From: a virus
Direction: 5' to 3' (one strand)
DNA length: 35,442 nucleotides
Virus genome (UHGV): UHGV-0072042
Positions 43-32,661 of the stretch are shown here, piece after piece. The stretch's first letter is position 1. Each line of letters starts with the position of its first letter. Under the pieces are notes generated by a model. It did no database searches, was not told the DNA's origin, and worked only from the letters and a program-made list of their open reading frames with translations. The position numbers and the translations under genes were made by a program.

Positions 43-138
43 AAAGAGCTACGGTAAAGTAGGTCTATTTGTTGTACCCTATTTTACCATCTCGAAATCC
101 GCTGTACAACCGAACAAACGTACGAAAGGAAAGATAAA

Positions 139-1345
139 GATGGCAAAAAAAGAAATTGATAAACGAATTAAAAAGTATTTAACAAAAAAAGGCGAAGAAA
201 AATATCAGTTTAGTCTGTACTTAGGAGTTGATCCGCTAACAGGAAAAAAAAGAAAAACGACAAGACGAGGTTTTAGTACCCCACTAGCCGCTGAGAGAGC
301 TTTAAAAAGATTGGAGGCAGATATACAGGAAAAAGGACTGCAAGCTTCTACAGCTCAAAAGAGCAAGAAATTCGAATATGTTTACGGCTTATGGTTTGAA
401 AATTATAAAAAGACAGTTAAAGAAAGCACTTGGTCCTCCACCAAACAAATTTTTGACACACACATCTTAAAAGTGTTTGGAGATAAGTTCATTGACAAAA
501 TAGACGTTTTTTTCTGTCAAGAAGCAGTAAACACTTGGTCCGATAGCCATCCTAAAATTTTTAAGAAAATAAAAAATTACACATCTAATGTTTTTGATTA
601 CGCTGCTTCTTTACAAATCATAACTAGCAACCCTATGAAATTAGTTTCTGTTCCACGCGGAGAAGCTCTAGATATCGAAGATAAAAATATCGAATTTTAT
701 ACTAAAGAAGAATTAATCGAATTTTTAGAAGCAATAAGAAACGATGATGATGAAAGATATTTATTCTTTTCTCTATTGGCTTTTACAGGTATAAGAAAAG
801 GAGAAGCTTTTGCACTGACCTGGTCGGATATTGACTTTAAGAGCAAAACACTCAATATTAATAAAACTGTAACAAGAGGATATCAAGGAAGATTGATCGT
901 AAATACTCCTAAATCAAAATCTGGAAAAAGAAAAATTTATCTAGACAATGATTTGATCAGTTTATTGAGAAAGTATTATACAAAAAACAAAACGATCGTT
1001 ACAATCCAAAGCGAAAACTTAATTTTTCAACATGATGGTCTTCTCTATAATCCTACAGTTTCGCGTTCGTGGCTTAATGTCATATATAAGCATCATCCAG
1101 AATTAACTAAAAGAATCACCACTCATGGTTTTCGACATACTCATGCCTCTCTCCTTTTTGAATCAGGAGCCTCTTTAAAAGATGTTCAGGAACGTTTAGG
1201 GCATGCAGATATTCAAACTACTTCAAACATTTACACTCATGTAACTGAAACTCAAAACAAAAAAGTTATCAATAATTTTGTAGCATTTATGAAGAATAGT
1301 ACTCAGGGGGAGTCAAAAGGGGAGTCAAAAAATATTTTGGGCTAA
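139..1345 (+). CDS. int: Tyrosine site-specific integrase (phage integrase family).
   Basis: C-terminal catalytic signature HGFRHTHASLL...LGHADIQTTSNIYTHV (R-H-R-Y). ATG at 139 preceded by GGAAAG; the ORF-track start at 14 is an upstream extension. Confidence 0.9.
1303..1326. repeat. Copy 1 of a 24-bp perfect direct repeat CAGGGGGAGTCAAAAGGGGAGTCA (internal tandem GGGGAGTCA x2). Lies inside the int 3' end, where it encodes GESKGESK.
   Basis: Exact match to 1547-1570. Putative Int arm-type site (P arm). Confidence 0.6.
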
Positions 1346-1358
1346 ACATACAACAAAA

Positions 1359-1380
1359 AAGACACGATCGAAATCGTGTC
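1359..1380 (-). terminator. Hairpin AGACACGAT-cgaa-ATCGTGTCT with an A6 run upstream on + (T6 downstream on the minus strand). Minus-strand intrinsic terminator for the late/lysis transcript; could also serve as a weak int terminator.
   Basis: 9-bp perfect stem, 4-nt loop. Same arm sequence recurs at 31390-31419. Confidence 0.45.
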
Positions 1381-1397
1381 TAATCGTTGATATATAA

Positions 1398-1421
1398 GGA
1401 AGGTACAGGATTTGAACCTGC
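1398..1421 (-). other. attP core: 3'-terminal fragment of a tRNA (T-arm plus acceptor 3' strand) on the minus strand. No 5' half, so not a functional tRNA gene.
   Basis: Reverse complement is GCAGG-TTCAAAT-CCTGT-ACCTTCC: T-stem with one G-U pair, canonical 7-nt T-loop TTCAAAT, then a 7-nt acceptor strand. Upstream sequence does not fold into anticodon or D arms. Typical phage attP identity segment for integration into a tRNA 3' end. Confidence 0.55.
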
Positions 1422-1546
1422 GCGCCGGTATTAGCCGGTTCGCCGGATTTCGAGAATAGGGTTTAAAGCTGATTTTAAGTGTTTTTCGCTTATTATCAGC
1501 TTTTTATTATCTAAAAAAACAACTTTTAGAGACATCCATATACTGC

Positions 1547-1570
1547 CAGGGGGAGTCAAAAGGGGAGTCA
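1547..1570. repeat. Copy 2 of the 24-bp direct repeat, immediately downstream of the lysin stop. Putative P' arm site.
   Basis: Exact match to 1303-1326. Confidence 0.6.
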
Positions 1571-1574
1571 TTTT

Positions 1575-2351
1575 TTATAGTTTATTCGCATTTAATCGAC
1601 GCTGTAATTCTTTCACTGCATTAGATACAGGACTGATTACACCGTCTTGTGTGGTGCCTAAATGTCTTTGTAATGCTTTGATTGTTCCTTGACCACACAA
1701 TCCGTCTTGAGCAATACCTAAGAAGCCTTGTAAAGCTTTGATGACATTCGACCCAGTCAACGTATTGTCAAATTGAGCAGAGTAAATATTTTGGTTAAAT
1801 GTTTGTTTGAACTGATGACTGATCACACCGTCTTTACCAGCAGTATCAAAGTATTCTTGCAGACGTCTAGCAGTTGCATTTCCAAATTGACCATCAAGGG
1901 CTAATTGGATCATCTGTGGTTTATTATCTGTATTAGTAGTTCCTCCATCGATAATACGGTAGAAATTATGTTGCAGTTTTGTACTCATGTATGCATCATT
2001 AGTATCTACTGCGATCCCGTTATGCGTATAAGAGCAATGGATAAATGAGCCGTTACTTAGAAAAATACCTGTATGACCAGCTGATCCATTTGACCCTCCA
2101 GGAGTACCTGAAATAAAGATATCTCCTCGTTGTACTTCTGATCGACTTATTTTTTTCAGTTTAGTTCCAACCATACCGAACAGCGTTTCAGTATTTCCCA
2201 TTGATCCAGAAGGTAAGAAGCCTCCAGCAATCATTGAGAAAAAAACTGCAGAACTGCAATCGTAAGAATTGGGACCCATTCGATGGGTCATTGAATACGT
2301 CACTTTACCTAGTCGATCCTGCATCCATTTAATCATTGACTCTTTACTCAT
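1575..2351 (-). CDS. Endolysin: N-terminal NlpC/P60- or CHAP-like cysteine peptidase, C-terminal peptidoglycan-binding repeats.
   Basis: YDCSSAV (Cys) and GHTGIF (His) motifs. C-terminal repeated IKALQxxLGxxQDGxxG units resemble PG_binding_1. Sits next to the holin. Confidence 0.85.
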   Translation of the reverse strand: MSKESMIKWMQDRLGKVTYSMTHRMGPNSYDCSSAVFFSMIAGGFLPSGSMGNTETLFGMVGTKLKKISRSEVQRGDIFISGTPGGSNGSAGHTGIFLSNGSFIHCSYTHNGIAVDTNDAYMSTKLQHNFYRIIDGGTTNTDNKPQMIQLALDGQFGNATARRLQEYFDTAGKDGVISHQFKQTFNQNIYSAQFDNTLTGSNVIKALQGFLGIAQDGLCGQGTIKALQRHLGTTQDGVISPVSNAVKELQRRLNANKL

Positions 2352-32358: not shown

Positions 32359-32661
32359 TTAGATTTTGTATTTAGCCATCAGCTCATCGATGTCTTTTTT
32401 GTCATACCTTAAAAAGCCATCTATACGAATTTCTTTTAACCCGTGAGCTACTAACTTCTCAAAGCCTTGATCATTTACACCTCCCACATATTTTCTAGCT
32501 TCGATTTTTTTCAAGTATCGTGTTTCTGACAAATTCTTTTTTGAAAGTTGACTAAGTGCGTCCTTTACAACTTCAACAATTGCAATTCTCAAACGAGTCA
32601 AAAACTCTTCGCTTAGAATATTCATGACTTGCCTCCTATCGAATTTTTTTTTTCTTTCCAA
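32359..32661 (-). CDS. Hypothetical early protein (100 aa).
   Basis: ORF in an operon. Confidence 0.45.
   Translation of the reverse strand: MERKKKFDRRQVMNILSEEFLTRLRIAIVEVVKDALSQLSKKNLSETRYLKKIEARKYVGGVNDQGFEKLVAHGLKEIRIDGFLRYDKKDIDELMAKYKI

Follow-up and report, generated by a model that had tools for sequence, protein, structure and literature searches.

UHGV virus genome UHGV-0072042 is a temperate siphophage genome of 35,442 nucleotides, the whole of which was analysed here and is referred to as the window. Close to its first position lies an integration module, in which a gene for a tyrosine integrase (int) and the gene for an endolysin converge on the phage attachment site, attP. This region holds two copies of a 24-bp direct repeat, one of them inside the int open reading frame (ORF), and between these copies an intrinsic terminator and a piece of a serine tRNA gene. 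The coordinates of these features, and of two further loci discussed below, are collected in Table 1. Since the end of the window joins its start in relatives, the window represents a closed phage genome in the attP form, in agreement with a preliminary description of this DNA, which had read the convergence of int and lysin as the phage-form arrangement.

Table 1. Features of the integration module of UHGV-0072042 and of related loci in the window.
Feature	Position	Strand	Content or basis
Leader motif	77..101	+	CCCTATT-ttaccat-CTCGAAATCCG; inverted repeat I20, uncertain part
int, tyrosine integrase, 401 aa	140..1345	+	ORF; ATG at 140, stop codon ends at 1345
Left 24-mer, proposed arm-type sites P1 (1307-1315) and P2 (1319-1327)	1304..1327	+	inside the int ORF
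Intrinsic terminator	1350..1381	-	stem 1381->1360, T-run 1359->1350, TTTTTGTTGT after the stem
attP/attB identity block	1379..1454	.	76 nt, one TA unit different from E. faecium attB
tRNA-Ser(CGA), 3' 57 nt	1398..1454	-	alignment to intact genes in L002, L003 and L004
Strand-exchange interval	1440..1454	.	tRNA strand CTCGAAA (anticodon loop), TCCGG (stem 3' strand) and CGA
P' arm spacer	1455..1546	.	A+T-rich inverted repeat 1465-1479 / 1489-1503
Right 24-mer, proposed arm-type sites P'1 (1550-1558) and P'2 (1562-1570)	1547..1570	+	non-coding
Endolysin, Amidase_5 / NlpC-P60 and PG_binding_1, last late gene	1575..2351	-	ORF and Pfam
Candidate excisionase (recombination directionality factor), small helix-turn-helix protein	32362..32661	-	position and size only

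The repeated 24-mer, CAGGGGGAGTCAAAAGGGGAGTCA, occurs in two exact copies, which were also returned as direct-repeat family D2 by a repeat search of the window. No further match was found elsewhere in the window with up to three mismatches allowed, and none of 100 dinucleotide-preserving shuffles contained any match at all. Both copies had been reported in the preliminary description, which set the left one a single base too low, at 1303-1326, and which correctly recognised a tandem motif in each: the 9-mer GGGGAGTCA occurs twice per copy at 12-bp spacing (starts at 1307, 1319, 1550 and 1562), with all four paired occurrences in one orientation. Two additional occurrences of GGGGAGTCA, both on the minus strand (22148 and 32244), stand outside any pair and were taken as chance. 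The duplication is limited to these 24 bp; the sequence between the copies is unique, with the hairpin and the tRNA fragment each present once. The last 17 codons of int run through the left pair, which is read in frame as QGESKGESK and encodes the C-terminal GESKGESK tail, as had been proposed. The right copy starts ~92-93 nt beyond position 1454, the end of the identity block shared with the bacterial attachment site (attB), and its end falls 4 nt short of the lysin stop codon (1575-1577, minus strand).

The hairpin terminator and the minus-strand tRNA 3' end that had been described between the copies are both real, the tRNA piece being 57 nt long and not 24. It comprises the anticodon loop from its first base, the 3' strand of the anticodon stem, the long variable arm, the T-arm and the 3' strand of the acceptor stem. 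ARAGORN called no tRNA on the window, and an Rfam search of 1200-1700 returned chance-level matches only (E > 0.5), because only a fragment of the gene is present. The terminator score falls on the minus strand, and in a lysogen the terminator adjoins the 3' end of the regenerated tRNA-Ser at the attR junction. Beyond the tRNA fragment, the P' spacer is conserved together with the right pair, both in the attL junction of lysogens and in relatives without the lysin. In such relatives, a phage tRNA-Met(CAT) gene lies directly past the right pair in place of the lysin (L010, 5825-5898; L223, 5491-5564; also L012, L013, L019, L023, L025, L027 and L029), and just ~20 nt of the lysin 3' end is kept. 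The right pair is therefore part of the attachment module and not of the lysin gene, and a breakpoint of module exchange lies just outside attP.

The integrase itself matched three Pfam families: Phage_integrase (98.4 bits), Phage_int_SAM_3, a SAM-like core-binding domain, and Arm-DNA-bind_4, the last covering residues 21-64 and scoring 37.3 bits, where the curated cutoff is 22.3. Its catalytic set is complete (R219, K258, H329, R332, H355 and Y365) and invariant in an alignment of 18 integrases, and sequence matches in the PDB include the Tn1549 Int (6EMY). An identical protein, named as an Enterococcus site-specific integrase, is encoded on 77 contigs, including E. faecium chromosomes. We also examined, as the preliminary description had suggested, whether related integrases end with the same tail. 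In integrases 70-84% identical to that of the window the tail is kept, as GESKGESK, GESKGESR or GESNGEPK, whereas more distant ones do not have it.

We then sought the bacterial counterpart of attP. The identity at 1379-1454 was found in two wastewater contigs, L002 (OR847155.1) and L003 (OR849225.1), each with an intact tRNA-Ser(cga) gene called by ARAGORN and a neighbouring DUF1576 gene whose product is an E. faecium protein; these contigs are therefore E. faecium chromosome with an empty attB. Their GenBank labels read ‘UNVERIFIED_ORG: Listeria phage LM 4-11-1 / 4-14-1’, while their actual content is E. faecium chromosomal DNA and not phage. The proposal that the fragment should lead to a host tRNA gene was thus borne out, with attB being the E. 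faecium tRNA-Ser(CGA) gene over 76 nt of identity. The host of this phage is Enterococcus faecium, and insertion is into this gene.

Both prophage junctions, which had likewise been proposed as a check, were recovered from sequences of E. faecium and its relatives. At attR, the order is int, left pair, hairpin and an intact tRNA-Ser(CGA), as seen in E. hirae (in a prophage whose Int is 84% identical to that of the window), in Enterococcus sp. ZJ1622 and in several E. faecium genomes. At attL, the E. faecium flank, equal to the left flank of the empty site, is followed by the tRNA fragment, the P' sequence 1455-1546 and the right pair. ARAGORN called tRNA-Ser(cga) at attR (L004, L192, L220 and L224) and no tRNA at attL (L023 and L154), such that integration leaves one end with an intact tRNA gene and the opposite end with a displaced fragment, as in target-regenerating elements. 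Since the left pair is found at attR and the right pair at attL, the two 24-mers stand on opposite arms of attP and are parted by integration.

The natural variation of the tRNA part allowed us to locate the crossover. This part occurs as several alleles on otherwise near-identical arms: A in the window, L011 and L015; B in L010; C in L223, L226 and phage ctekg1; and a T-arm variant in the related element L037. Reading the alleles manually, we found that pairing of the T-stem and of the variable stem is kept across them. The empty E. faecium site carries allele A, and allele A was present in every attL seen in the E. faecium flank. At the attR of L224, in contrast, allele C stands beside a right flank that matches the empty, allele-A site at 500/500 positions, and the same allele was found at attR in the E. 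faecium chromosomes CP111505.1, CP131006.1 and CP112179.1. With allele C at attR and allele A at the host site, the tRNA 3' part at attR is phage-derived. The last difference between alleles A and C is at 1439 and identity ends at 1454, and hence exchange occurs within 1440-1454. The crossover is confined to these 15 bp, in the anticodon loop and stem, on a comparison of alleles that come from different isolates. The number of TA units, (TA)3 in the phage and at attR and (TA)2 in attB and at attL, agrees with this interval. Across it, attB reads CCGGA-CTCGAAA-TCCGG, the anticodon stem-loop, and attP reads CCCTATT-CTCGAAA-TCCGG.

This result moves the core from where the preliminary description had put it, in the T-arm and acceptor strand at 1398-1421, a segment that instead belongs to the tRNA half supplied by the phage. 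A distance of roughly 90-125 bp had been given there between each copy and the core. Counted from the crossover interval, the left copy ends 112 bp away and the right one starts ~92 bp away, with centre-to-centre distances of 134 bp (left) and 109 bp (right).

One further allele-C phage deserves mention. L001 (OY731397.1, Siphoviridae sp. ctekg1), a 96% identical phage, has the anticodon CAA in place of CGA, aligned to window position 1452. If carried into the regenerated gene, this would give a serine tRNA reading a leucine codon. A scan of viral contigs for the ctekg1-type variable arm gave no matches; in metagenomes, all 30 of 30 copies of the ctekg1-type allele C read CGA. We therefore rejected the idea that ctekg1 targets a different tRNA, the metagenome scan pointing to an ordinary tRNA-Ser(CGA) allele, and regard its CAA as an error or a mutation within the crossover interval.

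To see the 24-mers in the context of the integrase family, we used 80 IMG/VR loci, chosen by means of the 18-integrase alignment, whose integrases are 38-99% identical to that of the window. In most loci that reach past the int stop codon, a tandem pair of 8-10-mers at 12-bp spacing lies near the end of int, with a sequence that is specific to the lineage. In relatives whose integrases are 38-84% identical, this pair stands ~70 nt beyond the catalytic Tyr codon. Recurrence of the motif was examined in 12 loci with DNA past the int stop, which carry ten different 9-mers (GGGGAGTCA, TGGTAGTCA, GGATAGTCA, GTATGGTCA, CGGGGTCAA, GGGTAGTCA, TGGGTATCA, CCGTATTCA, TCGTATTCA and CGTATTCAA). In 11 of the 12, an exact repeat of the locus’s own int-adjacent 9-mer follows at 160-235 nt from the stop codon (~180-250 nt beyond the first pair), in the same orientation and usually paired again at 11-12-bp spacing; in the twelfth, L092, the downstream position is taken by a variant pair. 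A table of 9-mers against loci was diagonal, with off-diagonal matches only between loci sharing a motif and for the L093 9-mer in L092. The background frequency of these 9-mers was 0-0.013 per kb.

The comparison also explains how a binding site may come to be translated. In most lineages the first arm site lies 66-83 nt past the codon of the catalytic tyrosine and the int stop codon stands at Tyr+66, and the arm sites are therefore untranslated; in the window lineage the stop is at Tyr+111, with similar positions in a few others, and there the sites are translated. Because the stop codon precedes the sites in most relatives, it is better to say that the int ORF is read through into the arm sites than that the repeat reaches into int, as the preliminary description had worded it. 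The GESKGESK tail is a by-product of an int stop that lies downstream of P1-P2 in this lineage and not upstream. Tandem tails of unrelated sequence in Vagococcus integrases, such as SLGQSLGQ and GIQKGIQK, have the same origin, being translated arm sites as well.

The pattern of substitutions agrees with this view. Both 9-mers are exact in int genes that are only 71% nucleotide-identical (L243 and L245). The 3-nt spacer between them varies (AAA, AAG or AAT, including a non-synonymous change from Lys to Asn), and synonymous positions inside the 9-mers are never changed in the window lineage. In E. durans (L247), with an int 69% nucleotide-identical, the sites are GGGGTACT and are located past the stop. 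Since the 9-mers remain exact while gene, spacer and stop position vary, and since the right copy is non-coding, the constraint is on the DNA and not on the peptide.

Related arrangements were also observed outside phages. Vagococcus islands that carry a primase and sit at the 3' end of rplT, with integrases 45-47% identical (L005, 11215-11260; L007, 4829-4870), carry the tandem arm 9-mers within their int tail; next to these comes a CGTTG-N6-CAACG inverted repeat, which resembles a canonical core. A second arm copy was not found in the island sequences analysed, which stop short of the other island end.

Taken together, we consider it very probable that the two 24-mers are two pairs of integrase arm-type sites, flanking the crossover of a ~267-bp attP at 1304-1570. 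The suggestion of arm-type (P/P') sites in the preliminary description thus gains support from the lineage-specific covariation of the pairs, from the Arm-DNA-bind_4 domain of Int and from the homologous layout of phage mv4, discussed below. Int has a catalytic domain and a separate N-terminal arm domain, and repeated sites unlike the core stand on both sides of the crossover, which are among the features by which a heterobivalent integrase is recognised. Each pair would mark the outer limit of an arm, P1-P2 on the P side and P'1-P'2 on the P' side, with the N-terminal Arm-DNA-binding domain of the heterobivalent Int predicted to read the four 9-mers. The core-binding and catalytic domains of the same protomers would act at the crossover ~110-135 bp away, and the arms would bridge to the core through DNA bending, thereby assembling the recombination complex. 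Strand exchange would fall within the host tRNA-Ser(CGA) gene at its anticodon loop and stem, the interval to which the natural alleles point. With the crossover at this place, the tRNA gene of the lysogen receives its 3' 57 nt, and also its terminator, from the phage, and the host’s own 3' part is displaced to attL, beside P'1-P'2, as the junctions show. A recombination directionality factor, possibly the small helix-turn-helix protein of Table 1, may set the direction of the reaction.

Several points weigh against this interpretation. For this phage, binding of Int to the 9-mers is a prediction drawn from its sequence and from analogy with mv4. A core located between the two pairs is established for the window lineage and mv4 only. 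The crossover map combines isolates, as no single genome yielded attL and attR with different alleles. The core-type sites are not obvious either, as CCCTATT on the P' side of attP is not an inverted copy of TCCGG. Finally, residues of the N-domain that we tabulated differ between integrase groups with different 9-mers, but such differences follow the phylogeny; we therefore did not count this covariation as evidence, and it is suggestive only.

Alternatively, the 24-mers might bind an accessory protein, such as an excisionase or directionality factor, a host bending protein or a phage regulator, and not Int. Tandem direct repeats about one helical turn apart also fit the Xis sites of lambda-like systems, and the phage encodes a possible directionality factor. 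No excisionase is identifiable by family in the window, and the small helix-turn-helix protein is a candidate by position only: its gene is located downstream of cro and the antirepressor, its sole family match is PHROG 668 (‘HTH DNA binding protein’, E = 6e-12), and a Pfam search gave no match. We consider this alternative improbable, since matched pairs on both outer ends are the pattern of mv4 Int and not the one-arm pattern of Xis. Moreover, the layout recurs in the small Vagococcus islands and on unrelated phage backbones whose shared component is the integrase, and the sites keep a fixed distance from the point at which the int catalytic domain ends.

Somewhat less probable still is that the repeats are arm sites but that the crossover is mv4-like, at the tRNA's 3' end, with the remaining tRNA fragment a relic. 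The tRNA-Ser(CGA) of mv4 is indeed recombined at its 3' end, and the TA-unit difference taken alone places the crossover only to the right of 1396. In addition, sequences like CGTTGATAT, which lies just past the tRNA 3' end in the window, recur in relatives, as AAACGTTGAT at the Vagococcus rplT junctions and CGTTGATATAA in L037 and L046. However, a crossover at this position predicts a host-allele T-arm and variable arm at attR, whereas allele C is seen at attR and allele A at attL, and on this allele distribution we rejected it. Furthermore, in each of four alleles the phage carries an intact tRNA half with its stem pairing kept, as is expected only of fragments that join a working tRNA.

Least credible of all is that the repeat arose by recent duplication or misassembly, or is kept only for the GESKGESK tail. 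In favour of this, the identity between the copies is 100% and one of them is coding. However, both copies, or one per prophage end, are present in more than 30 independent contigs; the repeated block leaves out the hairpin and core that the preliminary description thought an artefact would include; the sites follow the stop codon in most family members; and a non-synonymous spacer change is tolerated where synonymous 9-mer positions are unchanged. The comparative data thus already refute it.

The layout that we describe, with paired integrase arm sites at both ends of attP, is already known from mv4, a phage of Lactobacillus delbrueckii in the Tn916-Int subgroup of heterobivalent tyrosine recombinases, and the window is a clear but ordinary example of an mv4-type attP. 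The two phages share the target tRNA-Ser(CGA), and mv4 Int is ~34% identical to that of the window and has an arm-binding domain. In gel shifts, only the adjacent pairs P1P2 and P'1P'2, which are 11-bp direct repeats, stabilise mv4 Int on the core, and these pairs stand at the two ends of a 215-bp attP (2023 bioRxiv preprint 10.1101/2023.11.06.565760). In the mv4 record, we located AACTAG-containing sites at 1707/1719, at 12-bp spacing and overlapping the int stop (1718-1720), and at 1889/1900. Thus, both phages have an attP of 215-270 bp with two direct-repeat pairs at its outer ends, and in both the P pair is spaced at 12 bp and overlaps the int 3' end. They differ in the arm motif (AACTAG-containing 11-mers in mv4, GGGGAGTCA in the window), in the crossover (at the tRNA 3' end with ~17-21 bp of identity in mv4; in the window, within the anticodon loop and stem, the identity spanning 76 bp) and in the orientation of the tRNA piece, which by our own reading of the mv4 record is co-oriented with int there and lies on the opposite strand in the window. 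Phage T12 of S. pyogenes regenerates a serine tRNA gene with a fragment that starts at the anticodon loop.

As in lambda, whose attP is ~240 bp, the proposed arm sites are distinct from the core and stand on both arms, and int adjoins attP. Lambda has five arm sites (P1, P2 and P'1-3), among which sites for IHF, Xis and Fis are interspersed, and it does not insert into a tRNA gene; in the window there are 2+2 arm sites and no accessory sites were identified. Genomic islands that target tRNA genes split their target and restore it with the element’s own 3' copy, leaving a displaced fragment at the other end (PMC4383910). Nothing essential distinguishes the window from such tRNA-targeting elements of the Islander or Williams class, and it is a further example, at E. 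faecium tRNA-Ser(CGA). An overlap of protein-binding sites with an integrase gene is also on record for the IntS/TorI module of KplE1 in E. coli, where sites bound by recombination proteins are reported to overlap the region of the integrase gene (PMC2951348). There, the overlap is at the int promoter and gives autoregulation, whereas in the window it is at the int 3' end. Our literature searches found no description of this phage’s attP.

The enterococcal tRNA-Ser(CGA) gene appears in our data as an integration hot spot, with tandem or hybrid junctions in L012, L019, L029 and L154 (also L213-L242). In these tandem or hybrid junctions, the tRNA fragment links a foreign P arm (with the 9-mers ACGTATTCA, or GGAGTACT/GGGGTACT in L154) to a window-type P' arm. 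The same tRNA fragment was also found next to other arms, of at least three types on the P side and one on the P' side. Sets of left arms that are decayed or of another kind were seen at this site (among L220, L222, L239 and L263; L228, L235, L236 and L238). In one set, a stretch that looks like a diverged int 3' end is left, bearing one mutated site, GAGGAAATCA, and the 130 nt upstream hold no int frame that could be recognised; another set has only the hairpin and core in common with ctekg1. Such arms are probably what is left of grounded prophages. A scan of genome contigs for GGGGAGTCANNNGGGGAGTCA gave 99 stretches; the 80 that were listed came almost entirely from high-G+C genomes. Among the matches listed, three loci belong to this phage, one in E. 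durans NBRC 100479 and two in Enterococcus sp. ZJ1622. The low-G+C matches L144, L180 and L190 were inspected and rejected, as they bear no resemblance to the window attP.

At the other end of int, the leader motif at 77-101 repeats the attP crossover region (1461->1444) in inverted form, interrupted by a 7-nt insert. The ~90 nt upstream of int (50-135) are near-invariant where int is 69-80% nucleotide-identical (L004, L247 and L037), and the leader is slightly diverged in L243 and L245. Judged by its sequence, the motif could be a candidate core-type Int site in the int promoter or leader. In other lineages, we observed exact inverted matches between the int leader and sequence by the second arm pair, ~130-250 nt past the int stop: 16 nt in L112 (TCAACTATGCGGGCAA), 11 nt in L077/L084 (CATGCTGGCGG) and 12 nt in L066 (CAATGGCTAACG). 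By our estimate, these matches are too long for chance. The slot between the repressor and int is variable among otherwise identical int-att modules (e.g., L249, E. faecium JBHKEW010000006.1, 1-820), and holds a small lipoprotein-like ORF in the window, and elsewhere a LysM protein, an ISL3 transposase, or SLATT with ThsB-TIR, a Thoeris-like defence.

These observations lead us to three more speculative proposals, which we think doubtful as a set. First, the integrase family, found in Enterococcus, Vagococcus, Listeria and Lactobacillus phage mv4, may use a portable arm-recognition code, with at least ten 9-mers paired with N-domain variants. Second, binding of Int to the 3' coding end of its own gene (P1-P2), and perhaps also to the leader at 77-101, may couple the level of Int to the occupancy of attP. 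Third, the translated GESKGESK tail might modulate Int activity.

Our findings do not change the understanding of how such integrases work. As at least four tRNA alleles occur on arms that are almost the same, core fragment and arms are evolving as separate modules. The integration module of a very common E. faecium prophage is now defined to within a few bases, including int, attP (1304-1570), the tRNA-Ser(CGA) attB and the crossover, which can serve in calling prophage borders and in building single-copy integration vectors for enterococci. Across the family, the matched, lineage-specific 9-mer pairs at a fixed distance from the catalytic tyrosine provide a set of arm-site and N-domain pairs that could aid the reprogramming of mv4-type integrases.

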